Below, one piece after another: positions 1 through 32,000 of a stretch of 32,000 bases of DNA. The stretch's first letter is position 1; each line of letters starts with the position of its first letter. A model generated the notes under the pieces. The model was not told where the DNA came from. It ran no database searches and saw only the letters and a list, made by a program, of their open reading frames with translations. Source of the DNA: Crocosphaera subtropica ATCC 51142 (GTDB lineage Bacteria > Cyanobacteriota > Cyanobacteriia > Cyanobacteriales > Microcystaceae); assembly GCF_000017845.1 (NCBI RefSeq), contig NC_010546.1, forward strand, positions 3,900,001 to 3,932,000, in the 5' to 3' direction. A program made the position numbers and the translations under genes.

Positions 1-3000
1 TTTCAAATTTCACCACGGGAAGCTGAACAAATTGATCCTCAACAAAGATTATTCTTAGAAGTGGCCTGGGAAGCTTTAGAAAATGCAGGACTCATTCCTA
101 GTCAACTGTCTGGTACTCAGACTGGCGTGTTTGTGGGAATTAATAACAGCGACTATAATCGCATGAGTTGGCAAGATTTCGATTCGCTCAATGCTTATAG
201 TGGAACAGGAACAGATGTGTGCATTGTTGCCAATCGTTTATCCTATTTTCTCAATCTCAAAGGACCCAGCCTAGCGATTAACACCGCTTGCTCTTCTTCT
301 TTGGTAGCTATTCATTATGCTTGCCAAAGTTTACGGCTTCATGAATCAAATCTCTGTCTTGCTGGAGGGGTGAGCTTAATTCTGTCTCCAGAAGTAACGA
401 TCGCCTTTTCCCAAGGCCGAATGATGGCTGCGGATGGTCGTTGTAAAACCTTTGATGCGTCCGCTGATGGCTATGTTAGAGGAGAAGGATGTGGTGTCAT
501 TGTTCTTAAACGCTTATCCGATGCTCTAAAAGATGGGGATCAGATTCAAGGGATTATTCGGGGATCGGCAGTTAATCAAGATGGCTTAACCAATGGACTT
601 ACTGCCCCCAACGGCCCATCTCAACAGGCCGTCATGGGTCAAGCCCTCAAAAATGCTAACCTACAACCCCACGAAATTAGTTATGTCGAAGCCCACGGAA
701 CCGGAACCCCGTTAGGAGATCCCCAAGAATTTAGATCAATTACCACGGTCTTGAAACAGGGAAGACAACCAGAACAAACCTGTTGGGTGGGTTCGGTAAA
801 AACCAATATTGGCCATCTAGAGTCAGCTTCAGGTATCGCTGGTGTCATTAAAACCGTTCTCTGTCTTCAACATCAAACTATCGTTCCTCATCTTAATCTC
901 AACCAACTGAATCCTTATATCTCCCTAAAAAATATTCCGTTCACCATTCCCCAAGAATGCACTCCCTGGACAATTACAACGGAAAAACGCTGGGCTGGCG
1001 TTAGTTCCTTTGGCTTTGGGGGAACCAATGGCCATATCATTTTAGAAGAACCCCCTTCCTCTGAGTTAACAGCAACCTCTCAAGAGCAAAAACCTCACTC
1101 TTTAGACCATCCTTATCATTTATTAACCCTTTCAGCCCAAAGCAAAGAAGCTTTACAAGCTTTGGTTAAACGGTATCAAGATTTTCTCAACACACATCAG
1201 GCCGTTGCCCTCCAAGATGTATGTTTCACAGCTAATACGAAGCGATCGCAGTTTGAACATCGACTAGCTATGGTAGTCGGTTCTTCTAAAGAATTACAGC
1301 AACAATTAGCCACTTTAATCAACCACCCAGAAGAATCGGCCATTCGAGCCATAGCCCGTCCCCGTAAGTCCCCTAAAATGGCTTTTATGTTTACAGGGCA
1401 AGGTTCACAATTTGTGGGCATGGGACAGCAATTGTATCAAACTTCTTCTTTCTATCGTCAAATTATTGATGAGTGCGATCGCTTATTACAACCTTACTTA
1501 GAAAGGTCTTTAATAGATATTTTGTATGAGCAAACAGAAAATAGTCTTTTAGATCAAACAATCTACACCCAACCTGCTTTATTTTCTCTCGAATACGCTT
1601 TAGCTAAACTATGGCAATCTTGGGGTGTAAATCCTGTTGCGATGATGGGACACAGTGTAGGAGAATATGTGGCTGCTTGTTTAGCAGGGGTATTTAGTCT
1701 CGAAGATGGACTCAAACTCATTGCCTACCGAGGTCGTTTAATGCAAGCTTTGCCTGAAAATGGGGCAATGGTAGCTGTTTTTATTTCTGAAAAACAAGCC
1801 CAAGCTTTGATTGAATCCTATGGAGACAAGGTTGCTCTTGCAGCCATTAATGGCCCCAATAGTGTGGTAATTTCAGGAGAAAGGGATAGCATTCAAACCT
1901 TAATCACCACATTCGACAGCCAAGGCATTCAATTTAAAGAGTTGCAAGTGTCCCATGCTTTTCATTCTCCCCTCATGAAACCCATGTTGGCAGAATTTGA
2001 GCAAGTCGCCCAACAAATTACCTATAATCTCCCTAAAATCCCAATTATTTCTAATTTAACGGGAGAAATAGCCACCGATGCCATAGCGAGTTCTGACTAT
2101 TGGAGTCGTCACATTTTACAACCCGTCAAATTCTCGGCAGGGATGCAAACCTTGGCAGCACAAGGATATGATGGATTCATAGAAGTTGGACCTAAGCCCA
2201 TTTTATTAGGCATGGGTCGTCGTTGTTTACCAGAGAATCAAGGATTGTGGCTACCGAGTCTAAGACCTGGTTATTCTGATTGGCAAACCCTACTCGAAAG
2301 TTTAGGAAATTTGTATGTTAAGGGAACTGTTATTAATTGGGACAACTTTTATCAAGATGTTTCGGTTCACATGATTGCGGTTCCCACCTATCCTTTCCAA
2401 CGTCAACGTTATTGGTTTCAATTATCGGGTAAACGAACTTATGTTCAATCATCAGTTCCCTCACAATTACAGGCAGCAAACCCTTCTCACATTGAACAAA
2501 ATAAACTTATAGATACCTTAAAACAAACCCCTAATAAGTCTGAGCAGGAAGCTCTCTTAACCGCTTACGTTGAAAAAAAAGTGTTAAAGGTTCTCAAACT
2601 TCCTTCGTCGGAACAGATCAACCCTGAAAAGTCTCTCAGTGTCTTAGGGTTTGATTCGTTGATGTTGATGGAACTGAAAAATTTGATGGAAAAAGAGTTA
2701 AATATAACCTTGTCAACGAAAAAACTTTTGAACACAATCACTCCTGAGAAATTAACAAAAGAACTGATAGGACAATTATTAACGAAAGAAACAGAAGACA
2801 GTATTTCGAGAAAGGAGGATTTACCTCGTAATTGGTTAGAATTTTATCAACCTCAACCTCAAGCTAATTATCGTTTATTTTGTTTACATCATTTAGGAGG
2901 AAATGCCTCATTATTTCAAAAATGGTCAAGTGAGCTAGAGCCTAAAGTTGAGGTTGTTCCTCTACAAATACTCAGAAAATCTCAGAATATAAATCAAACC

Positions 3001-3567
3001 AATGAAAATCAATTTCATCTGCTAATTGAAGCAATGGAAAAGGTTTTAGCTCCATATTTAGATAAACCTTTTGCTATTTATGGTCATAGTATGGGAGCAA
3101 TTATGGCATTTGAATTAGCTCAAAAACTTTCTCAAACACAAGGAAAATTATTGCAACATTTATTTGTCAGTAGTTCTTTTTCTCCCCAGAAGATCAATAG
3201 AGTTTTAAAAGAAAATCAATTATCTTTAGAAGAGATTCTAAATGTATCTGAGATTCCTGAAGAAATACGGCAGGATTCCTCTATGATGGAAGAAATTACT
3301 TCAATTTTTCAAGTCGATTTACAATTGCTCAAAAGCTATGTATATACTAAAAATTCCCCCCTAAATTGTCCAATTTCTACTTTTGGTGGCAAAGGAGATC
3401 CCCTGATCAAGCAAGAGGATTTATTGCCCTGGGCAGATCATACCCATATTGGATTTAGATTTATGATGTTTCCAGGAAATCATATGTTTTTAATGGGAAA
3501 AAGTCATAAACTCTTATTACAAACTATCTTAAAAGAAATAGAAGTTTCTGCCTTGATATCTGCTTAA
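1..3567 (+). CDS. Type I polyketide synthase, terminal module KS-AT-ACP-TE (5'-partial)
   Basis: Frame 1 is open from nt 1 (FQISPREAEQIDPQQRLFLE, a KS N-terminal motif), so the ORF-track start at 61 is internal. KS motifs are TACSSS, EAHGTGT and NIGHLESASG. AT motifs are GHSVGE plus HAFHS (malonyl-type). ACP has LGFDSLM and the C-terminal thioesterase has GHSMGA. No KR/DH/ER domain lies between AT and ACP. Confidence 0.9.
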   Translation, partial: FQISPREAEQIDPQQRLFLEVAWEALENAGLIPSQLSGTQTGVFVGINNSDYNRMSWQDFDSLNAYSGTGTDVCIVANRLSYFLNLKGPSLAINTACSSSLVAIHYACQSLRLHESNLCLAGGVSLILSPEVTIAFSQGRMMAADGRCKTFDASADGYVRGEGCGVIVLKRLSDALKDGDQIQGIIRGSAVNQDGLTNGLTAPNGPSQQAVMGQALKNANLQPHEISYVEAHGTGTPLGDPQEFRSITTVLKQGRQPEQTCWVGSVKTNIGHLESASGIAGVIKTVLCLQHQTIVPHLNLNQLNPYISLKNIPFTIPQECTPWTITTEKRWAGVSSFGFGGTNGHIILEEPPSSELTATSQEQKPHSLDHPYHLLTLSAQSKEALQALVKRYQDFLNTHQAVALQDVCFTANTKRSQFEHRLAMVVGSSKELQQQLATLINHPEESAIRAIARPRKSPKMAFMFTGQGSQFVGMGQQLYQTSSFYRQIIDECDRLLQPYLERSLIDILYEQTENSLLDQTIYTQPALFSLEYALAKLWQSWGVNPVAMMGHSVGEYVAACLAGVFSLEDGLKLIAYRGRLMQALPENGAMVAVFISEKQAQALIESYGDKVALAAINGPNSVVISGERDSIQTLITTFDSQGIQFKELQVSHAFHSPLMKPMLAEFEQVAQQITYNLPKIPIISNLTGEIATDAIASSDYWSRHILQPVKFSAGMQTLAAQGYDGFIEVGPKPILLGMGRRCLPENQGLWLPSLRPGYSDWQTLLESLGNLYVKGTVINWDNFYQDVSVHMIAVPTYPFQRQRYWFQLSGKRTYVQSSVPSQLQAANPSHIEQNKLIDTLKQTPNKSEQEALLTAYVEKKVLKVLKLPSSEQINPEKSLSVLGFDSLMLMELKNLMEKELNITLSTKKLLNTITPEKLTKELIGQLLTKETEDSISRKEDLPRNWLEFYQPQPQANYRLFCLHHLGGNASLFQKWSSELEPKVEVVPLQILRKSQNINQTNENQFHLLIEAMEKVLAPYLDKPFAIYGHSMGAIMAFELAQKLSQTQGKLLQHLFVSSSFSPQKINRVLKENQLSLEEILNVSEIPEEIRQDSSMMEEITSIFQVDLQLLKSYVYTKNSPLNCPISTFGGKGDPLIKQEDLLPWADHTHIGFRFMMFPGNHMFLMGKSHKLLLQTILKEIEVSALISA

Positions 3568-14694: not shown

Positions 14695-16054
14695 CAGGGT
14701 AAGCTCATCTAAAATGGTATAAAATGTACTTGACTAAGAAAGTAAAGTCTAGGTGAGGCAAAAAGGGACTTAAAATAAAAAAACAAAGTACAATTAGGAC
14801 TTTCGTAATTATGGAATCAGAACATGGCCAAGGGGTTTGCAGACCAAAAACAATCTAGTAAGAAAAAAAAGGAAAAGGGAAATATAGCATCTATTGATGA
14901 AATCCAAAACAATTTATTAGGCTATGTCAAAGAAATAGAAGATCCTAGAGTACAAAGAAGCAAAAAACACCTCCTTAAAGATGTATTGGCGATCGCTATA
15001 TTGGCAGTCATTGCAGGGTCCCAAGGTTGGGAAGATATGGAGAACTATGGTATCGCAAAACAGGAGTGGTTATCAGAGTTTCTAGAACTCCCTCACGGAA
15101 TCCCGAGTGATGACACATTTAGAAGAGTTTTTGAGAGAATTGATCCAGAATCGCTGCAAAAATGCCTACAAAAATGGGTTCAATCTATAATGAATTCAAT
15201 TCAAGGAGAAATTATCCCCATCGATGGCAAAACATTAAGGGGTTCTTACGATCGCAACGCCGGACAGTGCGCTTTACATACGGTCACAGCGTGGGCATCC
15301 CAGCAGAGTCTGGTGTTAGGACAAGTCAAAGTTGAAAACTACTCCAATGAAATTACGGCCATTCCTGCCTTACTCGAACTATTAGACATTACAGGCTCGA
15401 TCATTACCATTGATGCAATGGGAACTCAAACCAGCATTATCCAACAAATTTGTCGGCAAAAAGCTGACTACATTGTTACTCTCAAAGCTAACCATCCTAC
15501 TTTATTTTCTCAAGTCAAGCAATGGTTTACTGATACCCAAAACAATGGCTGGGATGGCATTGAACATGATTACTACAAAAGTGTAACCAAGGGCCACCAC
15601 CGCACCGAGAAACGATACGTTTGGGCTATACCAGTAGCAGCTATGGGAGAGCTTTACCAGCAACAACAATGGCATGGACTGCAAACTATTGTCGTAGTCG
15701 AACGCATCCGTCACTTGTGGAACAAGACTACCCACGATATTCAGTTTTATCTGACCTCTTTACCTCCCAATGCCCAATTCCTTTGCCATGCGATCCGCAC
15801 CCATTGGAGCATTGAGAATAACCTTCATTGGACACTCGATGTCACTTTTTCTGAAGATCAATGCCGTATTCGGTCAGAATATAGTCCACAGAACTTTGCT
15901 CTTCTAAGACGATTGGCTCTTAATGTTCTCCATCAAGAAAAAACATTTAAACGTAGTCTTCGCCAGAAAATGAAGCAAGCTGCTATGAACAACAACTATA
16001 TGATGACTGTTCTCAATTCCTTCTGTCAAGCGGATTTTAGATGAGCTTACCCTG
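14695..16054 (+). mobile_element. ISAs1-family insertion sequence (1360 bp)
   Basis: Perfect 21-bp terminal inverted repeats: CAGGGTAAGCTCATCTAAAAT at 14695-14715 and its reverse complement at 16034-16054. They enclose a single transposase ORF. No direct target duplication is visible on the flanks. Confidence 0.85.
14824..16044 (+). CDS. ISAs1-family (H-repeat-associated) DDE transposase
   Basis: 406 aa. The N-terminal block I.DPRVQRSKKHLLKDVLAIAILAVIAGSQGWEDME is typical of the DDE_Tnp_1-associated domain. The C-terminal HWSIENNLHWTLDVTFSED block is typical of ISAs1 transposases. Confidence 0.85.
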   Translation: MAKGFADQKQSSKKKKEKGNIASIDEIQNNLLGYVKEIEDPRVQRSKKHLLKDVLAIAILAVIAGSQGWEDMENYGIAKQEWLSEFLELPHGIPSDDTFRRVFERIDPESLQKCLQKWVQSIMNSIQGEIIPIDGKTLRGSYDRNAGQCALHTVTAWASQQSLVLGQVKVENYSNEITAIPALLELLDITGSIITIDAMGTQTSIIQQICRQKADYIVTLKANHPTLFSQVKQWFTDTQNNGWDGIEHDYYKSVTKGHHRTEKRYVWAIPVAAMGELYQQQQWHGLQTIVVVERIRHLWNKTTHDIQFYLTSLPPNAQFLCHAIRTHWSIENNLHWTLDVTFSEDQCRIRSEYSPQNFALLRRLALNVLHQEKTFKRSLRQKMKQAAMNNNYMMTVLNSFCQADFR

Positions 16055-20903: not shown

Positions 20904-21228
20904 CTATAGCCATTTTTCATTAGTCTAGACAGAAGAATAACAAAATTCATTCCAAAGATAAACCAAGCAATGAAAATCATCAACTTCATTAATTTTGGCA
21001 ATAAACCTTGGAAACCCTAAAGTAAGTTGAGAGATTGGGAAAATTCTCAGCCAGTTTAAAATGAAATTAAAGTATAGGTAAGGTTGCAAGATTAACTGTA
21101 TATTATTATCTAGCTGAGACTCTCAACTTTTTCTTCATTGTATCTTTCCTAGACTAATACAAAGAGGAATAAGTGTGATCGGTTGGTTGCGTTTTCGGTA
21201 AATACTGTGTTATAGTAAAAACTTGTTC

Positions 21229-21302
21229 GGACGTATAGCTCAGTTGGTTAGAGTACATCGTTGACATCGATGGGGTCACTGGTTCGAGTCCAGTTACGTC
21301 CA
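21229..21302 (+). tRNA. tRNA-Val (anticodon GAC)
   Basis: Cloverleaf read by eye. Acceptor stem GGACGTA (21229-21235) pairs with TACGTCC (21295-21301), with discriminator A at 21302. D-loop is AGCTCAGTTGGTTAGAG. Anticodon stem CATCG/CGATG has loop TTGACAT (anticodon GAC at 21263-21265). T-arm is GGTTCGAGTCC. CCA is not encoded. Confidence 0.95.
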
Positions 21303-21346
21303 TACTAGTCATAACAAGCATTGCAGCCTATTTTGTGACTTTATGT

Positions 21347-21394
21347 TGTACATTAACAGATTATTTGTCATCGGTAACATATTATGTGTCGTGT
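21347..21394. repeat. Transposon terminus: TGTACA end plus two tandem TnsB-type binding repeats
   Basis: The sequence starts TGTACATTAACAGATTATTTGTCATCGG TAACATATTATGTGTCGTGTG. Two 20-bp direct repeats (21354-21373 and 21375-21394) share 16/20 positions. As far as I recall, Tn7-like/V-K ends start with TGT(ACA) and carry arrays of such repeats. Confidence 0.65.
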
Positions 21395-21433
21395 GCTTAT
21401 TACTGAAGCTAATCCTAGATCATGGTAAAAAAT

Positions 21434-21610
21434 CTTTCAATCCATCTCATTAACCAAAATAGATTGTGACAGTACAATGACAGGGTTTTGATTCCAGATT
21501 CTTACTTTCAATCCATCTCATTAACCAAAATAGATTGTGACGATGGAAAATATACCTCAAACAAGCATTACCACTTTCAATCCATCTCATTAACCAAAAT
21601 AGATTGTGAC
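21434..21610 (-). CRISPR. CRISPR array, 3 repeats / 2 spacers, type V-K repeat
   Basis: Three identical 37-nt repeats at 21434-21470, 21505-21541 and 21574-21610. The minus-strand repeat is GTCACAATCTATTTTGGTTAATGAGATGGATTGAAAG, ending in the V-K-typical TTGAAAG. Spacers are 34 nt (21471-21504) and 32 nt (21542-21573). Confidence 0.9.
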
Positions 21611-21924
21611 GACAGAAGCCCAAAAACCTTATGTATTAGGTCTTTTGCTGACTATTTGCGCTGGATGAAACTCTAAAGTTCATTTCAGCTACAGTCTTTA
21701 AACAAAATAAAGACTGAGAAGTGCTACAACCTATATCTAACAACGGGTTCAAGCTTTGCGCTAGACAACTAGAGAAAAAGAGTTGCTTTTACACGCCTCA
21801 AACTAAGATTAAGCAAGGATTTCATCTTGGTCTAGAATGACTCAGTAAAGATTACAGCAACACACCTGCGCCCTTGCAGAATCAAACATTTTGAGAGCGA
21901 ACTCTAAAATGAGTTAATCTTATA

Positions 21925-21950
21925 GGACGTAACTGGACTCGCTTTCAATC
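21925..21950 (-). ncRNA. Delocalized homing crRNA: truncated repeat (GATTGAAAG) + 17-nt spacer matching tRNA-Val
   Basis: The minus strand reads GATTGAAAG|CGAGTCCAGTTACGTCC. The 17-nt spacer (21941-21925) is identical to tRNA-Val nt 21285-21301, which is directly preceded by GGTT (21281-21284). Confidence 0.85.
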
Positions 21951-22010
21951 TACTTAATATCTATAAACCTAACTATGCCTTTAACCATGCTTTATCCCGT
22001 CATCAGTAAG

Positions 22011-22295
22011 AAAAAATAAGTGGATTCCTCCTTGCTCGGAGGTGATTCAGTAGCCATCGCTGTGGTAAACCCACGCCACTTATTGCTGGGAGCGCACCTA
22101 CCCTATAAAATGAAATTATCAGCTAATCTCAAGCTACAGGTTAATCATCTCTACAACCTAAATTGTAGAAATCAGCTTCAGGGTGGACAGCTACTAGGGC
22201 CAGAAAGCACAACTATCTACCAATAGTTAACCTAACCCATTTCCGTAATCCAGAGGTTCAATTAAGAACATAATTTACGGTGCGCGACTTCATTT
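22011..22295 (-). ncRNA. Cas12k tracrRNA
   Basis: Lies between the cas12k stop and the crRNAs on the same strand. It contains anti-repeat segments ATTAACC (complement of 22139-22145) and AATCCA (complement of 22022-22027), which pair with repeat GGTTAAT and TGGATT. It ends in CTTATTTTTT. Blocks TAGGTGCGCTCCCAGCAATAAG and GGCTACTGAATCACC..CAAGG.GGAA match my recollection of the ShCAST tracrRNA scaffold. The 5' boundary is approximate. Confidence 0.75.
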
Positions 22296-22349
22296 ATACT
22301 CTTCAGTATAAAAATACCATATTAGATTGTCAAGGTTCAGATGAAAATT

Positions 22350-24188
22350 TTAAGCAGATAAACGCGACTGGTAAGCTTTGAAAGCTAATTCCGCAGCTTT
22401 TTGTAGCGTAGTTCCCTGTAGTGGTTGTTGGCTTTCTTCAACAACTATTCCTAATTTAGAAGCCTGTGCTTGAATGTTGTCAATTAATCTGCCGTAACTC
22501 TACTGGTGGACTTGTATACGATATTTCTTGGCATATTCTGCTTGTGCTTCAATACAATTGGGGATTTTAGCTTCAGCTTTAGTTTGGATTTCACTTTGAA
22601 TCGCTTCTCTTATATCCTTTAGTTTAGGAACAACAATACTTCCTGCTTGATATTCTTGAGCTATTGATATGATTGCTTTAGCCAATAAACGGTCAATATG
22701 TTGACCTAATTCAGAATCACCAAACTGGTTAAAAGCCTCTTTTTGCTGTGCCACATTTCTTTGATGAGACTGAAGCTGTTTTTGTCTCCGTTGACGGTTA
22801 AGTAAGGGATAATTTTTTCCAAGCAGTTGTTTAATGTTTCGGTAAGTTAACACTTTTCTGGTCATTCCATCAATAACGGCAATAGTAGCAGGTTTTTTGA
22901 GTTCCATCGAAACACCAACTAGAATATTAGATTTTCCTTGATATAAAGGTTGACTGGGGCGAGGAAAGGGATTTTCAAGTCTATCTAAGGTTGATTGTTT
23001 TCGCTTAATAAATGCTTGTTGATTTTTGGTTAAATCCCCCTTTTCGTTCATAGAAGTAAGAACTTTGGCAATTTCTTCTGCCTTTTCCTGTTTGACTTCT
23101 TCTGTCCTTTCTTGTGTCCATAAACGAGTATCTAGGGTACATTGTAGGGTTAAGCGATGAACATTCCAAGGTTGACTTTTTCCAGTCTCTTCTTGCCAGA
23201 GAATGCGTCCAGAACGTAGAGTAAATAAGGCACTAGAATGTTGATTTTTACTAGATTTTTTTATTTGTTGATCTTCGTAAAAACGTTGAAACCATTTAAG
23301 TTGTCGGTTGCCACAATAAATTTCAAATTTTAAGTCACTTATTCCATTAAACTGAACACAAAGACGACCTTTTTCATTTTTTGACCAAGTTAAATCTTCG
23401 TTAGTTTCGTAGTTGATAGGAAAAGGAATTGATGAGGATTTTGTTAGTAAATTATCTTGCCATGATCTCGCTTCTTCAATATTTTCAGGATCAGTACAAC
23501 AAGCAATCTTTAATGTTTCTAACCAATTCTCATTAGTTACATCTCGACCTTGAGGTAAACGACTATTAATTTGTTCTTGTAGTCGTTTAAGCATGATTTC
23601 TACTTTACGGCGACGTTTAGCAAATTTCTTAGTATCTTCTGGTTTTTGAGGAAGTTGACAGCGATTTTTAAGTAAGTATTTTAAGGCTGTTCGAGTTAGA
23701 ATATCTTGTTCATTTCTATAGTCTTGAAAGAGAGTATTAAATAAACGTTCTGTTCCTTCATAAGATTGAAGGATTTCAGTAGCTTTCTGGCGAATTGTTT
23801 CTAAATCTGTTTGACCGTCTTTGATTAATTGATGATCACTTTTTAAGACTTCTAACCAGCGTCTTTTTCGATCAAGTTTTCGCTGTAGTCGTTGTTGAAG
23901 TTTAAGCCAAGATTTGAAGATATATTTTACTAAATTAATGCCAGAAGTATAAAACCGTGCAGGTTGTCCTAAAAAACGGGGATCTTTCTTTAATTCATTA
24001 CCTAATTGTTCGATAACCTTTACTTTTAGTCTTCCTCACTGTTTCCACTTTTCAAAGTCGGGGTGTTGTGCCACTTTTTGCAGTAATTCGTTGATAAATG
24101 GCGTGTTTAAGTCTGTCATTAGTCGCCAAAGGGTGTGACGGATGGGTTCTTTAGCAACGAGACGACATTGAATGGTGATTTGACTCAT
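22350..24188 (-). pseudogene. cas12k: cas12k (612 codons) interrupted by two in-frame stop codons
   Basis: ATG at 24188 (MSQITIQCRLVAKEPIRHTLWRLMTDLNTPFINELLQKVAQHPDFEKWKQ) is followed by TGA at 24038-24036. The same frame continues without shift through the track ORF 23594-22500, which ends in TAG at 22502-22500 (...YRIQVHQ*). It then runs on in frame (SYGRLIDNIQAQASKLGIVVEE...SRLSA) to TAA at 22352-22350. Strongly collinear with the ShCas12k sequence as I recall it. The RuvC-I position reads GVSMELKKPATIAVID, with no GxDxG aspartate. Confidence 0.9.
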
Positions 24189-24256: not shown

Positions 24257-24685
24257 ATGGGAGAAATTTTTTTTACCTCTAAGGATGCTGCTAAAATTAC
24301 GGGGTGTACTCTGCGCCAGTTACAGTATTGGCGGGAAAAAGGGGTTATTGTCCCGATGGTGAGTGCAACGGGAACGGGGAGAAGCGTTTATTATTCTCGT
24401 TCTGAGTTGGTGGAGTTGGCAGTAATGGTAAATTTGCTGTCAGTGGGGTTAACTTTTGAGTCTGCTTCTGGAGTGTTGCAGCAGTTAAGGGAAATTGAGC
24501 CGAATTTTGCTGAGGAGAAAAGTCAACGGCGTTTAATGTTGGTTTTTGACACTTCTGAGGGAATGCTGAGGTTAAAGGATTTTGAGCGAGAGAGTGCGAT
24601 CGCTTTTCTAGATCAAGGTTTCCCTGTTATTCCTGTGTGGGTAGATGAAATTTATCAGAAATTAGATGCTCAGTTGCTAAATTAA
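24257..24685 (+). CDS. cvkR: MerR-type HTH transcriptional regulator (CvkR-like, Cas V-K repressor)
   Basis: 142 aa. The N-terminal FTSKDAAKITGCTLRQLQYWREKGVIVP is a MerR-family HTH. It is divergently transcribed from cas12k, the position reported for CvkR in V-K CASTs. Confidence 0.75.
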   Translation: MGEIFFTSKDAAKITGCTLRQLQYWREKGVIVPMVSATGTGRSVYYSRSELVELAVMVNLLSVGLTFESASGVLQQLREIEPNFAEEKSQRRLMLVFDTSEGMLRLKDFERESAIAFLDQGFPVIPVWVDEIYQKLDAQLLN

Positions 24686-24773: not shown

Positions 24774-25841
24774 ATGCAACTTATTCAAACTAGACCGAAA
24801 AAGTCAAGTAGGACGACAACAAAAGCATGGCTCAAAACTCTGACCTTAGCTTGTTCCTATGCTGGATTATCGGGGAAAAAGTCGCCTTGGGATTTAGCTG
24901 ACTTAACTTTACAAGTACAAACAAGATGGCAAAATGATTCTAGATATAATTTAAAAGAACTATCTAATGCTTGTAATATTTCTGAATCACGATTACGTTT
25001 GTTAGCAAGAACAGCAAAATTTTATCCTCCTCAAAAACGCTTTCAACAGCTTAGTATTACTCATCATATTGAGGCAATGCGAAAGGCTCCCGATAAGGCT
25101 TATTATTGGCTCAATCAAGCATTAGAAAAAAAATGGAGTGGTAGAGAGATACGTTTAGCTATTTCGGGAGATGGCGATCCTAAAAAATTTTCATGGTTAC
25201 GATGTGGAACATTTTGGTATTTTTCTCATTGCGATCCTAGATTTGGAATTAAATATCCTGGCCGTATTCCAGGGCAAATACCAGCTAATTTAATACACTA
25301 TTTTACTGAACCTAATGATTTAGTTGTAGATTTAATGGCAGGAGGTGGCTCAACTTTAGATGCGGCTAAGTTTTTGGATAGAAAGTGTTTAGGTTATGAC
25401 TTAGTTTCTGTTCGTCCTGATATTTTAATTAATGATGCTCTTGTCGGTATTCCAAAAGAAGCTTACAATGCAAAATTAATTTTTTTAGATCCTCCTTATG
25501 GTGCGATCGCTAAAAATTTATATAGCAAACATCCTCATTGTTTATCGCAAATGAATGAAAAGGAATTTGTTAAAGCTTTAGTTACTATTAGTGAATATTG
25601 TGGTCAAGCTTTGGTATCTGATGGATACTTAGCAATTTTATTACAAAATGTCTATGACTGGGAAAGCGATACAGTATTTAAAATCATCCAAAGTTTTTTT
25701 GATAATAATTGGAAGCTTGTTCGTAGAATTCAAGCTCCTATTTCTAATCAACAAATTTCATCTAGTGTTATGAAATGGGCTAGAGAAAATCGCAAAATGA
25801 TCAATACAGATCGTGATTTGTTAATTTTTCAAATGATTTAA
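24774..25841 (+). CDS. DNA methyltransferase (N6-adenine/N4-cytosine type) with N-terminal HTH/ParB-like extension
   Basis: SAM motif I is VVDLMAGGGSTLDAA and catalytic motif IV is IFLDPPYG. The N-terminal about 130 aa (LSITHHIEAMRKAP...WSGREIRLAI) resembles DNA-binding extensions of phage/plasmid methylases. No adjacent restriction endonuclease. Confidence 0.8.
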   Translation: MQLIQTRPKKSSRTTTKAWLKTLTLACSYAGLSGKKSPWDLADLTLQVQTRWQNDSRYNLKELSNACNISESRLRLLARTAKFYPPQKRFQQLSITHHIEAMRKAPDKAYYWLNQALEKKWSGREIRLAISGDGDPKKFSWLRCGTFWYFSHCDPRFGIKYPGRIPGQIPANLIHYFTEPNDLVVDLMAGGGSTLDAAKFLDRKCLGYDLVSVRPDILINDALVGIPKEAYNAKLIFLDPPYGAIAKNLYSKHPHCLSQMNEKEFVKALVTISEYCGQALVSDGYLAILLQNVYDWESDTVFKIIQSFFDNNWKLVRRIQAPISNQQISSSVMKWARENRKMINTDRDLLIFQMI

Positions 25842-25857
25842 GCAGGACAAGTATTTT

Positions 25858-27432
25858 ATGAATAACCAAAAATTTAATGGTGAATCACTGTATGTGTTAC
25901 CTGATTCTGAGAAAGGAGATAAAAGCCTTAAGATTTGTATCGATTTCGATGCAACTTCTGAACAACCAAAATTTAAACGCAACGATTATGTTTTAATTTC
26001 TCAATCAGAACAACATCAGTGGGTCGGACAGATTGCAGATGTAGAAAGAATTATTTGTCCAATGGGACAATATTCAGATAACACCATCGAGTATCTTAGA
26101 AGACAAGTTTTAGCTCCCGATACAGTTCGTCCGCTTCGGGTTGTTAGATTGTTTGAAGTTCGGATTATTGGTCAATATATTGATGATGAATTGGATGTAC
26201 CTCTAAACAACATTTTGCCAGGAGCTTTAGTCAGTAAATTAGATGAAAAAAGAATTCGTAATTTAATTAATATTCCTCAAATCAAAACTTATTCAGATAA
26301 GTCTCAAAATGTTGTTGGTATTATTCAAAATGCTGAAAACATACCATTAACAATAGATCGTTTAATCATTAGAGATCATATTGGTGTAGGGGGTGCATCA
26401 GGACGAGGAAAGTCAAATTTGAACGAGAATCTAGTGGCGATCGCACAACAAGAAGGATGCTGTATTATTCAGCATGATGCTAAACCTGATTTTAGATACA
26501 TTGAAAAAGCTAATACAGACTCTCATCCTGCTATTCAAGCAAACTGGGAAAAATTTAAAGATTATGGTCTAAAACCTAGAGGAGCAAAAGATGTATTTAG
26601 AATTGCGATCGCTAATCATTTGCCACCTGATGACGTTAAAGTGGACATGATATTAGGGTTTAATGCTTCTGACTTAAATCCTGAATTACTGGCTCAACTA
26701 TTATCTCCTGGTACAGATCAAGCTTCTATTAATGCTCAAGATAATCTAGTCAAAGCAATTTATGGATTAAGGAGAAGAGATTACACACTAAATGACATCG
26801 TGGCAGAAGTTCAAAGGCGAAGGGCTGACGATGAAACTGCTCAAAATAATTATCAAGCTGCTGATCTGATACATCCAATGACTGTTGACTCTATTTTAAG
26901 AAAAATCAATAGCAATCGTCAAAGATTAGATTGGTTAGATACGGTAGGGAACTCAGTGAATAGAGGAGACATTAATAAAAGTAAGCACTTGGCCAGTAAC
27001 AAAAATCCTCAAAAAGTACAAAGATTTACTCCAGAACACATTTTTAAATCAGGAAGGATTATTATGATTGATTATCATAACATTTCTAAAGACGATGAAA
27101 ACTCTTATGCCATTATTTTGGAATATTTGCTGCGACAAGCTCATGATTATGTTTTGAATTCCGATCTAAATATTGTCGAAATGATTGATGAAGCTCATCG
27201 AGTATTTAATAATACATCTCGTCGAGCAAGTGCCTTAGTAAAATCTTTTACAAAATTTGCCCGTGAAGGTCGTGTAAAAGGTCACTGGATGATTGTTAGC
27301 ACTCAGTTATTTAGTGATATCGATCCAGAGGTTAGAGAAAACTTAAATACCAGATTTGTGTTACAACAAAATACAAGAGACGCAGCCAAGATTGCTACAG
27401 AAAATATGGGAAGTGATTTTATTGATACAGTA
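25858..27432 (+). pseudogene. HerA/FtsK-like ATPase, 5' part (525 codons) interrupted by IS
   Basis: Walker A is GVGGASGRGKSN and Walker B is IVEMIDEAHRVF. The N-terminal barrel-like segment reads DYVLISQSEQHQWVGQIADVE. The reading frame leaves the gene at the IS boundary (27433). The track ORF end DISKNP* is IS-derived. Confidence 0.65.
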
Positions 27433-28629
27433 GACATCTCCAAGAATCCATAACCCAGTTACAGCAATGAAAACAGGCAGATTAAACTTGAAGTCAAAAT
27501 TAGCCTTCAGAACGAATTAATAAGGGGTTGAAGGAATTAACTCTAATTTGGACATAAAACTATGGCTCATTATAACGTCAATTACCTCTCCAGATTGGGA
27601 GGATTCTATTATTTTCAAAATCAAGGAACTAATTCTCAACCGAACTAATCCACAAACGGTTAACAAAACCGATTTATATCGACTCTTATGTAAGCGAAAT
27701 CTTTCTTGAACTACTTTAAATACTTTGACAACTCGAATTAAATGCTCAACAAAAATCCGATTAGATGATAAAGCTTTATTTTCTTTTATTTGAGCTTCAG
27801 TTAATTCTCTTTTCTTAGTTTTTTTATGCGGAGTGATAATTTGAGTCTCTCCAATGTAGGCTTTATCAGCACTAAAAGTTTGGTTTATCTTGAATTTATT
27901 TAAAGTTTGCCGACAGATGTTAATGTCACTTGTCGGCCCAGGTTTTCCAATTACTACATCAATAATATCTTCAGCTTTTGGCAAGACAACGAATTGACTT
28001 TTTAAAGTATGTCTTTTCTGCTTACCCTGTCTCTTGGTGCGCGTTCCCTAGGCGATTACGAATCGCCGGGGTCGCACCGCAATAATATTTTTTTTGTTCT
28101 TGATAATCTGAAGGTCTTTCAATAGCCTGTTCTGCGCTGTCTACAATCAATTCATAATCAGTTAACATTTCAAGAACTATTTCTTTTTCTTCTTGAAACT
28201 TTTTTATTTGTTCTAATAAACTTGGTGGTAACTCTCCTTCAAAAAGTGTTTGCCAATAAGTAAAAATATTATGAGCCGTTGACTCACTTACTTGAAAAAG
28301 TAGTCCTAAGAGTTGAAAACTTATATTATGTCTTAAATAAACTAACGTTAGAACAATTTGTTCTTCTTCTGCTAATAAAGATGGACTTCCCGCACCAGGT
28401 TGATTAATTCTAATTTTTGTTTTTTCGTTCTCTTCTTTTTTTTTCTGATGAAGAAGCTTCCCTAGAGCAATCAATTGTTCCAATTGATTGTCATCAATTC
28501 CTAATAATCTTTTGGTTTGTTTAGGATATTTTTTTAGATAGCTCCAAGTGTAAGTTTCCATTCTTTTTTGAACTAATTATTCATTTTATTATACTATATT
28601 TCTTGATTTTATTAAATTATGGAGATGTC
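27433..28629 (-). mobile_element. IS5-family (DDE_Tnp_4 / Harbinger-like) insertion sequence, 1197 bp, TA target duplication
   Basis: Terminal inverted repeat GACATCTCCA at 27433-27442 and its complement at 28620-28629. It is flanked by TA (27431-27432 and 28630-28631). Removing the IS plus one TA restores an in-frame HerA-like ORF. Confidence 0.8.
27517..28561 (-). pseudogene. IS5-family transposase split into two ORFs by a 50-nt insertion
   Basis: The N-terminal ORF (28561-28022) carries an HTH_Tnp_4-like segment (LTLVYLRHNISFQLLGLLFQVSESTAHNIF). The C-terminal part (frame open from about 28024: GKQKRHTLKSQFVVLPKAEDIIDVVIGKPGPTSDI...ADKAYIG...NRIFVEHLIRVVKVFK) is the DDE domain. The usually contiguous YxGKxKRHT motif is separated by GC-rich sequence at 28026-28075. 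Confidence 0.7.
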
Positions 28630-28631
28630 TA

Positions 28632-28865
28632 GTGATCAGTCTTGGAAAGGGAAAATGTCTAGTTAAAACCAATGAATCTCAAGCTGTACTTCAAGTAGCA
28701 ATTGCACCTAGTCCCTTTGAATTAATGAGGGATGATAATCGTAATAAAAAAGGAGTTTATCAAGCTCCTCAACATAGGACCCAAAATAAAAATAACTCTA
28801 AAACAAAAAAAGCTGATAGTGATTTGGAAGATAAGGAAGATAAGTATGATTATAGTGCTTTTTAA
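28632..28865 (+). pseudogene. HerA/FtsK-like ATPase, 3' part (77 codons)
   Basis: Continues the 25858 frame once the IS is removed (..DFIDTV|VISLGKGKCLVKTNESQAVLQVAIAPSPFEL...). Not an independent gene. Confidence 0.6.
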
Positions 28866-28908
28866 AGAAATTTCAATTTCAAAATATTTCAAAAATAGGA
28901 GTTAAAAC

Positions 28909-29988
28909 ATGGATTTTTCTGAAATGCTCAAAGATAGCAAACAAGTCACCTATGATGACTTTGTGATAGATAGTGGAGGTATTGCTGATGATATTATTGA
29001 AATGTTTACAAATCCTTTAGCCATAGAAGTGCAAGAAATCTATAAAAAAGACATTTTAGAATTAAAAAATATAAAAACTGATAAAGGAACAGTGTTTGGA
29101 CTTAGAAAACTGAATTTTGGCGATATATCCCAAGCACCTGAAGTTTTATCTGGTCAAGTTGCAGCAGTTGATGGAACTTTTGCTTTACCTCGTCAAGATT
29201 ACTCAACAGGATCAGCCGTTTGTGTCGCAGTTGGTAGTGCGACAATGACTAGAACACTACAGGATAGTTTACATTATTGGTCTAGTACCAAAGCACTGAA
29301 AAATACTCAAGATATTGATGATTTTTTAGACCTTAGACAAGAACATCTTTATAAGCCTAATAATAGTGCATTTATGCGTTACTTTGAAGCTGCTCATGCT
29401 TTAAAAATCGATGAAAAATTTATATTTTTTGATGGACTTTTATGTGATGAATGGTTAGCTAATACAAAAGAAGGGGCTGCATTATATCGAGAAATGCTAG
29501 AACATCCAAATAAAAAGTTTATAGGTGTAATTAAGAGTTGTAAAAAGAATTTAATGTTTTCACAGTATGCCCGTGCTTGTCCATCAGGTTCTATATTATT
29601 AATAGAAACTTTATATGAACATATAAACAGAAGAGAATCAGAAACTAGATTTTCTCTTCACTCTAATAAACAAGAAGTACGATCCTTTTGGAATGAGTTA
29701 TCTCCTCGCATTATTAGGGGAGTTTTTAAACCTTATAAACGAGCATTTGGTTTTGAAGTTTTAGAAGATCATTTAGATGACATGATCCGTCTTTTGGCTG
29801 CAGACGCACACATGAGTCAGGAAGGACATGAAATTCCTTATTTATTAAATTTAGTTGATGGTGAAATTAGGAGAATGTTTAAACGCCATAAACTCTTGAA
29901 TGATATTGCACTAAAAATGAATCAAACTTCTGACTCTATTTATCAAGAAGAATGGGACGAACACGCATTTCGTCCACAACAAGCATAA
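28909..29988 (+). CDS. Hypothetical protein, possibly NurA-like nuclease
   Basis: 359 aa, starting 43 nt after the HerA-like gene on the same strand. The segment GQVAAVDGTFALP resembles the N-terminal catalytic (a)iDGS motif of NurA domains. HerA-NurA gene pairing is well known. The assignment is tentative. Confidence 0.4.
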   Translation: MDFSEMLKDSKQVTYDDFVIDSGGIADDIIEMFTNPLAIEVQEIYKKDILELKNIKTDKGTVFGLRKLNFGDISQAPEVLSGQVAAVDGTFALPRQDYSTGSAVCVAVGSATMTRTLQDSLHYWSSTKALKNTQDIDDFLDLRQEHLYKPNNSAFMRYFEAAHALKIDEKFIFFDGLLCDEWLANTKEGAALYREMLEHPNKKFIGVIKSCKKNLMFSQYARACPSGSILLIETLYEHINRRESETRFSLHSNKQEVRSFWNELSPRIIRGVFKPYKRAFGFEVLEDHLDDMIRLLAADAHMSQEGHEIPYLLNLVDGEIRRMFKRHKLLNDIALKMNQTSDSIYQEEWDEHAFRPQQA

Positions 29989-30000
29989 AATAAAATTAAA

Positions 30001-30420
30001 TCATTTTAAATGCTTAATAGGTTGATGAGTTAGTTTTTTCAATTCCTCTGCTACTTCAACACGATGACAGCGATGATAATCCATTTCTGCACACAACAGT
30101 AAAATAGTTTTAGATTTTGCTTTTTGGGCAATATCTTGTAAAACTTGATCAGCTTTTTCAGGATCAGGAGAAACCCAATGACTTGTACCTGAAACATTTC
30201 CTAATGTAGTTTCTGATAAATATTCTATTCCTTGTTCATGACAAAATTTTTCAATTTGATCACCGTACCATTTACGACTCCAAGCACGAGGTTTTTCTCG
30301 AACATCAATCAGAAAATCAATTTTAAACTCTTTTATATAGTTTAACAAAGTATCATAATTAGAACGATTGCCATAACCAAACGTCAAGATAAAAGATTGA
30401 TGAATAGATGTATTGTTCAT
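30001..30420 (-). CDS. DUF488 family protein
   Basis: 139 aa. FGYGNRS..LL....I..LIDVREKPRAWSRK...L...C...GI.Y....LGN follows the DUF488 pattern as I recall it. It ends with CAEMDYHRCHR (Cys/His cluster). Confidence 0.65.
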   Translation of the reverse strand: MNNTSIHQSFILTFGYGNRSNYDTLLNYIKEFKIDFLIDVREKPRAWSRKWYGDQIEKFCHEQGIEYLSETTLGNVSGTSHWVSPDPEKADQVLQDIAQKAKSKTILLLCAEMDYHRCHRVEVAEELKKLTHQPIKHLK

Positions 30421-30424
30421 AATT

Positions 30425-31219
30425 TTAAAATAACTCCATTTGTTTTATTTTTACTAGAGGAGGATAAAATAAACCGATAATCATAAAAGAATTTTTATGA
30501 TTCTTAAGATTTCCAACAATAAAATATAAATCTTTGTTTTGTAAAAAATTATCTTCTAGTTTTTGTCTAACTTTTTCTAAAGCATCTTGTTCAGCTTCTA
30601 ATCCTGAGAATTTAGAGTGATTACGACACTTACGATAAAGTTCCATAATTTCCCAATCACTAATCGAATATTTATGAGGTATATTATCTTGGTCAGTAAA
30701 TTGATAAACAAATTGATAAGGTATTTTTTCCAAGTCTATATTAGGTTCAAATAAATCTAACTGATTTAAAATATTCTGTTTCTTTTGATCCCATTCTCTG
30801 GTTGTTTGTTTGAAAAAATATTTTTCAACTGATTTAGGTTTAATAATTCCTAATGATTTTCCCTCTTCTTGAATTTCTTTAATCGATCTAAATTGTAATG
30901 GTAAAACGAATGATTTTCGCTCCTCCCAATTGTTACGAGTATCTATTTTTCTAATAATTTGCAAAGAATCATCATCGATCCGAAAACTTTCTGCACGATA
31001 ATCTTTATCATTTTTTACAATTTTTGCACTAATAATTGCCCATCTCGGATAACGTTTATCAAAATCTAAATAACGATATCTAATCGGATAAATTCTAACC
31101 CACTGCAGGGGATGTTCTTCGTCATCTAGCAATATCCCTGCTGTACAAACTGTTTCTTTATATTTAGTGCTAATTGACGGATAAGTTTTAGTAGCAATTA
31201 AAATCTTTCTTGTTTCCAT
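30425..31219 (-). CDS. Hypothetical protein (264 aa), no recognisable domain
   Basis: Long ORF starting 21 nt downstream of the tniQ stop and ending 4 nt before the DUF488 gene, all on the same strand. Coding-like composition. Confidence 0.6.
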   Translation of the reverse strand: METRKILIATKTYPSISTKYKETVCTAGILLDDEEHPLQWVRIYPIRYRYLDFDKRYPRWAIISAKIVKNDKDYRAESFRIDDDSLQIIRKIDTRNNWEERKSFVLPLQFRSIKEIQEEGKSLGIIKPKSVEKYFFKQTTREWDQKKQNILNQLDLFEPNIDLEKIPYQFVYQFTDQDNIPHKYSISDWEIMELYRKCRNHSKFSGLEAEQDALEKVRQKLEDNFLQNKDLYFIVGNLKNHKNSFMIIGLFYPPLVKIKQMELF

Positions 31220-31240
31220 AAAGTTTACATAAATATTGGC

Positions 31241-31750
31241 TTAATATTTAATTATTTGTTGCTTTTCCATCATCTCCCCAAACGATAAAAAACACCGATG
31301 ACACCAACCCTCAACCCAAAGTGCAGGAAACTGAAACCTTGCCCCACAATTAGGGCATTCCGACAACAACGTTAACCCATGCTCTGAACAAAACTGAGTC
31401 GTCTTCAACTGCCATTCAATCTTATGACAAGCTTCTTCCTCATAACAAGCCCCACATAAGCGAATCGGTTGATGCTTCATTCCCACACCTTTTGGCGGAA
31501 ACATACTCCATAACCTTTCCACTTCTACCCGTACCACATCAGATAAAGCCGTTAACTCCTCCTCAGTGGGTGCAGGAATAAAACGAAACTTCTCCCATCT
31601 GGCGATCGCACCCCCTAACCCCGTTATTTTACCCATCATCGTCACTGTTAACTCATTTTCTCGCCGAAACCGTCCTAAAAAATGACTGATACTTTCCCCT
31701 GCTAACGGTTGCACCAAAAACCACCAAGGTTGAATCTCTCGACTTTCCAT
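31241..31750 (-). CDS. tniQ: TniQ (small V-K CAST type)
   Basis: 169 aa. GESISHFLGRFRRENELT, the AIARWEKFRF block and IRLCGACYEEEACHKIEWQ...CPNCGARFQFPALW..GWCHRC are collinear with ShCAST TniQ as I recall it. The ATG overlaps the tnsC stop (TAATG at 31752-31748). Confidence 0.9.
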   Translation of the reverse strand: MESREIQPWWFLVQPLAGESISHFLGRFRRENELTVTMMGKITGLGGAIARWEKFRFIPAPTEEELTALSDVVRVEVERLWSMFPPKGVGMKHQPIRLCGACYEEEACHKIEWQLKTTQFCSEHGLTLLSECPNCGARFQFPALWVEGWCHRCFLSFGEMMEKQQIIKY

Positions 31751-32000
31751 TATCGATACTCCTCTGTCACTTCCTTCAAAGTTTCTAAATCAATCTTCTG
31801 TAACCCCTTTTTTAACGCTCTAATAGCAGATTCCCGTAGAATCATATCTAATAAGCCAATATAACCCCCCGTTGCTTGTCCGAGAATCTTTAACATCCGT
31901 TTACTACTTAAATTAGACGCTACAGGCAACTTCAACACCTGACGTTCCCAAATATCCACCGTTTGACTAAACTCATCTCCTGCTAACTTACCAAAGCGAT
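31750..32000 (-). CDS. tnsC: TnsC (AAA+ regulator of V-K CAST), 3' end only
   Basis: The frame is open to the window edge (..FGKLAGDEFSQTVDIWERQVLKLPVASNLSSKRMLKILGQATGGYIGLLDMILRESAIRALKKGLQKIDLETLKEVTEEYR). This matches the C-terminus of ShCAST TnsC as I recall it. The ATG at 31959 in the ORF track is internal. Confidence 0.9.
   Translation of the reverse strand, partial: RFGKLAGDEFSQTVDIWERQVLKLPVASNLSSKRMLKILGQATGGYIGLLDMILRESAIRALKKGLQKIDLETLKEVTEEYR

Follow-up and report, generated by a model that had tools for sequence, protein, structure and literature searches.

Why does a Cas12k transposon of Crocosphaera subtropica ATCC 51142 lie directly beside a tRNA-Val gene, and does the element itself carry the information that placed it there? 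The question is raised by the stretch of DNA analysed here (the window; 32,000 nucleotides of the chromosome), in which a short, repeat-like unit inside the transposon ends in a sequence that is also found in the neighbouring tRNA gene. An earlier note, made from the letters of the window, proposed that this unit is a self-encoded guide that explains the location of the element. On the sequence evidence assembled below, the 26–29 nt unit at 21953–21925 of the minus strand is very probably the homing guide of a type V-K CRISPR-associated transposon (CAST). The assignment is carried by direct observations, i.e., a perfect match, a PAM, the insertion distance, the orientation, the set of transposon components, and the conservation of both unit and target in relatives. 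The guide is an instance of a mechanism that has already been described, and the element itself has already been catalogued.

The element is a type V-K CAST comprising cas12k, a tracrRNA, a three-repeat CRISPR array, cvkR, tniQ, and tnsC (Table 1). The Cas12k sequence matches PDB structures of ShCas12k over its full length (805 bits, E 3e-241). The window closes within tnsC; a contig from Logan, L001, matches window positions 28650–32000 at 100% identity and runs on across tnsC and tnsB as far as another TGTACA end, so that the whole element, assembled from the window and L001, measures approximately 13.2 kb. In L001, TnsB shows the rve and Mu-transpos_C domains and TnsC the TniB and AAA_22 domains, and no tnsA was seen in the element. 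A TGTACA terminus is present at each end, and the right end carries five TnsB-binding sites. The array repeats end in TTGAAAG and the array reads toward the left end. The leader-like region that precedes it contains the AGCGCAAA motif twice, one copy lying approximately 45–57 nt before the first repeat, and it may be what Hsieh and Peters (2021) refer to as an I-D-like leader motif. The same element is listed in Supplementary Data 1 of Ziemann et al. (2023) as the CAST of ATCC 51142 at 3921344–3934593 (13,250 bp) with a "reduced cas12k"; the MerR protein of the window is ACB53130.1, given there as the CvkR of Crocosphaera subtropica ATCC 51142, and the Cas12k fragments are identical to ACB53128.1 and ACB53129.1 of that listing.

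The cargo between cvkR and tniQ includes an N6/N4 DNA methyltransferase gene adjoining that of a HerA-like ATPase (24774–27453, plus strand), and a gene pair (30001–31219, minus strand) that corresponds to PDC-M19, a candidate defence system in PADLOC: its DUF488 protein matches M19A, and its 264-aa protein matches M19B (E 2e-74). An IS transposase at 27517–28561 (minus strand) is broken, with HTH_Tnp_4 and DDE_Tnp_4 on separate open reading frames. The host DNA in the window is ordinary chromosome, with a KS-AT-ACP-TE polyketide synthase module at 61–3567 (plus strand) and an IS4-type transposase upstream of tRNA-Val at 14824–16044 (plus strand).

Table 1. Features of the attachment site, the guide unit, and the Cas12k transposon, in window coordinates.
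Feature	Position	Strand	Basis or remark
tRNA-Val(GAC), attachment-site gene pointing toward the transposon	21229–21302	+	ARAGORN; Rfam RF00005, 68.7 bits
PAM GGTT, GTN type, in the T-arm	21281–21284	+	Read directly
Protospacer, 17 nt: 3′ part of the T-loop, T-stem, 3′ strand of the acceptor	21285–21301	+	Exact spacer match
Transposon left end: TGTACA terminus and only two TnsB-binding-type repeats	21347–21396	+	Three to four sites in relatives
CRISPR array, three 37-nt repeats, spacers of 32 and 34 nt	21434–21610	-	Repeats at 21574–21610, 21505–21541, and 21434–21470
Leader-like region between homing unit and array, 314 nt	21611–21924	-	Highly conserved in four Crocosphaera elements
Probable homing (att or anchor) spacer, 17 nt	21925–21941	-	Same in L005, L006, L007, and L011
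Truncated repeat handle GTAGATTGAAAG, last 9 nt = 3′ end of the repeat	21942–21953	-	Read directly
Linker, tracrRNA T-tract to homing unit	21954–22010	-	Length conserved; promoter not detected
tracrRNA, ~288 nt	22011–22298	-	Anti-repeat AATCCAC at 22026–22020, T6 tract at 22016–22011
Promoter-like site of the tracrRNA: TTGACA, 17 nt, TATACT	22305–22333	-	11/12 sigma-70-type; conserved in relatives
cas12k pseudogene	22350–24188	-	Single frame with in-frame TGA at 24038–24036 and TAG at 22502–22500
cvkR, MerR-type CAST repressor, divergent from cas12k	24257–24685	+	Pfam MerR_1; identical to ACB53130.1
tniQ	31241–31750	-	Pfam TniQ; tnsB and tnsC upstream in L001
tnsC, 3′ part; element runs past the window	31750–32000	-	Right end ~2.6 kb further on

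The architecture of the unit agrees closely with what the earlier note had claimed. Read directly, the minus strand at 21950–21925 consists of GATTGAAAG followed by the 17-mer CGAGTCCAGTTACGTCC. The 37-nt repeat of the array, GTCACAATCTATTTTGGTTAATGAGATGGATTGAAAG, has the former at its 3′ end, and the handle agrees with this repeat at nine of nine terminal positions, at 10 of the last 12, and at 11 of the last 15, in keeping with the claim that the repeat is degenerate upstream of GATTGAAAG. The spacer is identical at all 17 positions to tRNA-Val 21285–21301, and the GGTT said to precede the protospacer directly is indeed read there. Allowing up to three mismatches, the 17-mer has exactly two matches in the window, at 21285–21301 (plus strand) and 21925–21941 (minus strand); in 100 dinucleotide-preserving shuffles it has none (chance expectation 0), and the spacer and tRNA-Val form the sole inverted repeat reported within 21200–22400. 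The tRNA-Val(GAC) gene is the one tRNA placed in the window by ARAGORN and Rfam. From the PAM to the element there are 62 bases (21285–21346), with TGTACA beginning at 21347; the claimed distance is thereby confirmed, and it coincides with the mean of 62 nt given for V1 systems in a paper later than Ziemann et al. (2023). The claimed spacing on the other side holds equally well, the unit being separated from the first array repeat by 314 nt (21611–21924) and the handle lying 58 nt downstream of the tracrRNA T-tract, against about 60 nt in the note. Some features count against the homing reading: the handle has a C·A mismatch with the tracrRNA anti-repeat that the array repeats do not have, the unit is upstream of the array where the literature places such units downstream, the promoter scan detected no sigma-70-like site directly before the unit, and the two ends share no 5-bp target-site duplication.

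A homing mechanism can be outlined for these parts on the model of the published ShCAST and AcCAST work. The unit would be transcribed in the direction of cas12k and the tracrRNA, either with the tracrRNA or after it, and its GATTGAAAG-type handle would pair with two stretches of the tracrRNA, an internal CUUUC and the anti-repeat AAUCCAC at the 3′ end. Cas12k with this dual RNA would recognise GGTT and the 17 nt of the T-arm and acceptor part of tRNA-Val, and insertion by TniQ, TnsC, and TnsB would follow, the left end of the element coming to lie approximately 62 bp downstream of the PAM. Since insertion would fall just past tRNA-Val, the tRNA would be kept intact. By analogy with these systems, we infer that the guide is expressed and active.

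Relatives of the element were collected by a Cas12k sequence scan of one genome per species, which yielded ten loci. Three of these are from Crocosphaera (L005, which is C. chwakensis CCY0110, L006, and L007), with 79–85% Cas12k identity, and in all three the homing unit is invariant and occupies the same place: it begins approximately 400 nt beyond cas12k and is followed by a conserved leader and the array. A more distant element in a Dactylococcopsis metagenome-assembled genome (L011; 60% Cas12k identity) has the same spacer, the same tRNA-Val target, and a distance of 62 nt. The unit is invariant in L005, L006, L007, and L011 while its neighbouring bases differ. A tRNA-Val with the PAM GGTT adjoins the unit-bearing element in L005, L006, and L011, the longer motif CTGGTT being found at the PAM in each; the distance from PAM to left end is 62–63 nt in L005 and L011, and the protospacer of L006 has one mismatch, A in the tRNA against G in the spacer. 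Beyond tRNA-Val, the host DNA of L005, L006, and L011 has no similarity to that of the window by tblastx, and the host flanks likewise do not resemble one another. These dissimilar flanks fit independent insertions and genome shuffling alike; because of them, it is the tRNA with which the unit is to be associated, rather than any neighbourhood that the elements have in common. Two further elements have units of this kind, directed at tRNA-Pro in L012 and at tRNA-Cys in L013. A metagenome scan with handle and spacer found a single contig; it is similar to L006, stops at the first repeat, and does not include the attachment site.

The fourth tRNA-Val-type unit, in L007, is accompanied by no tRNA within the fetched locus despite its identity. 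At L007 8990–12700, the left end is cut after GATGA, behind the penultimate TnsB site, and abuts a second Tn7-like element that shows a TGTACATTAAATAATTATTG end and tnsB-tnsC-tniQ. The arrangement has the appearance of two elements inserted in tandem at a single attachment site, and the abutting element probably explains the absence of the tRNA. Relatives bearing the same unit at other loci had been named in the earlier note as one of the cases that would speak against its claim; L005, L006, and L011 lie at tRNA-Val, and L007 is not counted against it.

Three other explanations of the match were weighed. That it is a chance inverted repeat without function is favoured by its short length only, and is opposed by the absence of any match in the shuffles, by the coincidence of handle, PAM, distance, and orientation, and finally by the conservation of the unit in four further elements among varying neighbour bases, which refutes it; its probability is close to nil. 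Partial duplications of tRNA 3′ ends are common at the borders of genomic islands, and the match might accordingly be an attL/attR-type duplication made by a site-specific integrase, with the repeat-like neighbour present by coincidence. The orientation contradicts this, the copy being inverted relative to the tRNA where a direct copy would be expected. Furthermore, the copy lies approximately 580 bp inside Tn7 ends of the TGTACA type and begins exactly after GATTGAAAG, no integrase was found among the element proteins scanned, and the sequence preceding the spacer bears no significant resemblance to a tRNA (p ~0.07–0.13). We therefore consider an integrase origin extremely improbable.

The remaining alternative accepts a real guide and gives it a role other than homing, such as marking of the occupied site by Cas12k-crRNA bound to the retained protospacer, which would contribute to target immunity or modulate tRNA-Val transcription. 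Cas12k is a binding-only effector, and protospacer and PAM are intact beside the resident element in every genome examined, both of which would suit such a role. Against it, the distance from PAM to left end and the orientation fit the insertion geometry exactly, published experiments that are cited in reviews show delocalized crRNAs directing homing, and nothing in the data requires a second role of the guide. A non-homing role is thus very unlikely, and homing remains the preferred reading of the unit.

How the guide would be produced can be considered from the tracrRNA, which lies directly downstream of cas12k on the same strand. Its fold is supported by compensatory changes at 27 of the 70 predicted pairs among 10 related sequences, and the anti-repeat changes in step with the repeat from one lineage to another (in the window, AATCCA with TGGATT; in L013, AACCCACC with GGTGGGTT; in L011, AATCA with TGATT). 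Rfam has no family matching the tracrRNA or the unit, even at E values up to 1. At the threshold of the scan, no sigma-70-like promoter was detected downstream of the tracrRNA promoter as far as the left end, leader included, and a terminator scan found no canonical minus-strand terminator after the tracrRNA, the T-tract of which is not directly behind a hairpin. When the 3′ end of the tracrRNA is folded with linker and unit, the consensus structure predicts pairing between linker and spacer with zero compensatory changes. The linker was also considered as a degenerate copy of tRNA-Val, which would have been a pointer to the origin of the guide; this was rejected, as the alignment to the 5′ part of the tRNA has a non-significant score of 20 (shuffle p ~0.13), which 6.5% of genomic background windows reach. 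The origin of homing guides is counted among the open questions in reviews.

The element of the Dactylococcopsis genome shows a closer union of the two RNAs. At L011 7950–8880 there are two tracrRNA copies, the second of which ends in GGGAATCCATC and is followed after 13 nt by GATGGATTGAAAG and the same tRNA-Val spacer, so that an 8-bp anti-repeat/repeat hairpin is formed in the manner of an sgRNA. The anti-repeat AATCA of the first copy fits the TGATT of the array repeats, and AATCCATC of the second copy fits the homing handle perfectly. In the literature searched, Saito et al. (2021) excluded, there is no description of natural tracrRNA-crRNA fusions or duplicated tracrRNAs in type V-K systems. 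As a separate observation, the handle pairs perfectly with the 3′ anti-repeat of the tracrRNA at L012 8516–8539, L013 8590–8613, and L011 8836–8872, and the array repeats of these three elements mismatch that anti-repeat; in the window the situation is reversed, the handle being mismatched.

Taken with the 58-nt linker that the Crocosphaera elements conserve, the L011 fusion suggests that guide and tracrRNA may be co-transcribed. One tentative and rather doubtful form of this idea is that the Crocosphaera guide is made by read-through of the weak T-tract, which would yield one tracrRNA-linker-crRNA molecule serving as a natural single guide or as a precursor. The leads toward it are the 58-nt spacing, the conserved linker length, the undetected promoter, and the T-tract without an adjacent hairpin. 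If it were true, the ratio of termination to read-through would balance homing against array-guided transposition.

The copy in ATCC 51142 is in decay. Its cas12k is a recent pseudogene with two single-base nonsense codons: at the in-frame TGA, relatives have CGA or GCA (CGA in CCY0110), and at the TAG they have TGG. Both codons are present in an independent assembly (L015) that is 100% identical over 5.8 kb, and a sequencing error is therefore unlikely. At the left end, two TnsB-type sites are present where L005, L006, L011, and L013 have three to four, and approximately 41 bp are missing relative to L005 in the alignment; it thus looks as if an internal deletion of about that length had occurred between the repeats, and the loss of sites probably impairs transposition. 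A 5-bp target-site duplication (TSD) is absent, the flanks being TATGT on the left (window 21342–21346) and TCAGC on the right (L001 2929–2933), which suggests rearrangement after insertion, decay, or a history of replicative transposition. A TSD is not required for classification as a type V-K CAST, and Hsieh and Peters (2021) list none for the CCY0110 element either. The broken IS transposase in the cargo is a further sign of decay of the element. Because cas12k is interrupted by two nonsense codons, this copy cannot use the guide alone, and the guide is probably unusable now unless Cas12k is supplied in trans. With the nonsense codons, the lost TnsB sites, and the missing TSD taken together, the guide explains a past insertion; the claim that the element carries the guide to its own location stands in that respect, and fails as a sign of present homing because cas12k is broken.

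As a discovery, the unit carries little weight, tRNA-homing guides of Cas12k transposons having been documented since 2021. It is nevertheless a clean worked example in which guide, PAM, and insertion distance are all readable from raw sequence. The residual value of the locus lies in the placement of the guide by the tracrRNA and in the fossil state of the copy; moreover, the tracrRNA-adjacent guide and the L011 fusion are relevant to the expression of homing guides and to their separation from array guides.

The closest known systems are the published type V-K homing guides. Hsieh and Peters (2021; bioRxiv 10.1101/2021.02.06.429022) described "truncated repeat-spacer units" with a 17-bp spacer and a handle of approximately 13 bp, which mostly target tRNA genes, usually with a perfect match and a GTN PAM. 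Ziemann et al. (2023; PMC9938897) referred to them as "anchor spacers" and gave a PAM-to-left-end distance of 46–82 nt, and reviews credit Saito et al. (2021, Cell) with the experimental demonstration of homing by "delocalized crRNAs". The window unit resembles these guides in its 17-nt spacer, its handle from the 3′ end of the repeat, its tRNA protospacer outside the left end, its GTN PAM, the distance of 62 nt, and its position apart from the array. It differs in placement: the published guides typically lie at the 3′ end of the array or past it, by the left end, whereas the window unit lies upstream of leader and array. Among the att-spacer rows of the Hsieh and Peters table that were examined, the unit is downstream in 18 of 19 and upstream in CCY0110 alone. 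Placement between the tracrRNA and the leader and array is thus rare, and it is kept across the Crocosphaera elements.

The element of CCY0110 is accordingly the nearest counterpart. It appears as row 210 of Table S1 of Hsieh and Peters (2021), with the handle TAAGTAGATTGAAAG, the same spacer, tRNA-Val as target, CTGGTT, and 0 mismatches; the ATCC 51142 element is not included in that table, likely because its cas12k fragments fall under the length cut-off of approximately 500 aa. The two elements share an identical handle, spacer, PAM CTGGTT, tRNA-Val target, and position of the unit between cas12k and arrays, and their Cas12k proteins are 85% identical. By contrast, CCY0110 has an intact Cas12k of 612 aa, four left-end TnsB sites, and a longer array, whereas in the window cas12k carries two nonsense codons, the left end two TnsB sites, and the array three repeats.

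Two further systems offer partial parallels. The natural single-guide tracr-L of Streptococcus pyogenes Cas9 (bioRxiv 10.1101/2020.05.21.102756), which represses the cas9 promoter, is likewise a form of tracrRNA with its own targeting segment; the likeness is relevant only to the speculative reading of the window tracrRNA and unit as a single RNA, and the function differs, being promoter repression in the one case and guidance of transposition in the other. The atypical homing crRNAs of type I-F3 CASTs (Petassi, Hsieh, and Peters, 2020, Cell) present the same division of labour, in which a dedicated guide with a diverged repeat serves a conserved chromosomal attachment site and the array serves other targets, although they operate with a Cascade/TniQ effector, full-length spacers, and other attachment sites, and without a tracrRNA.
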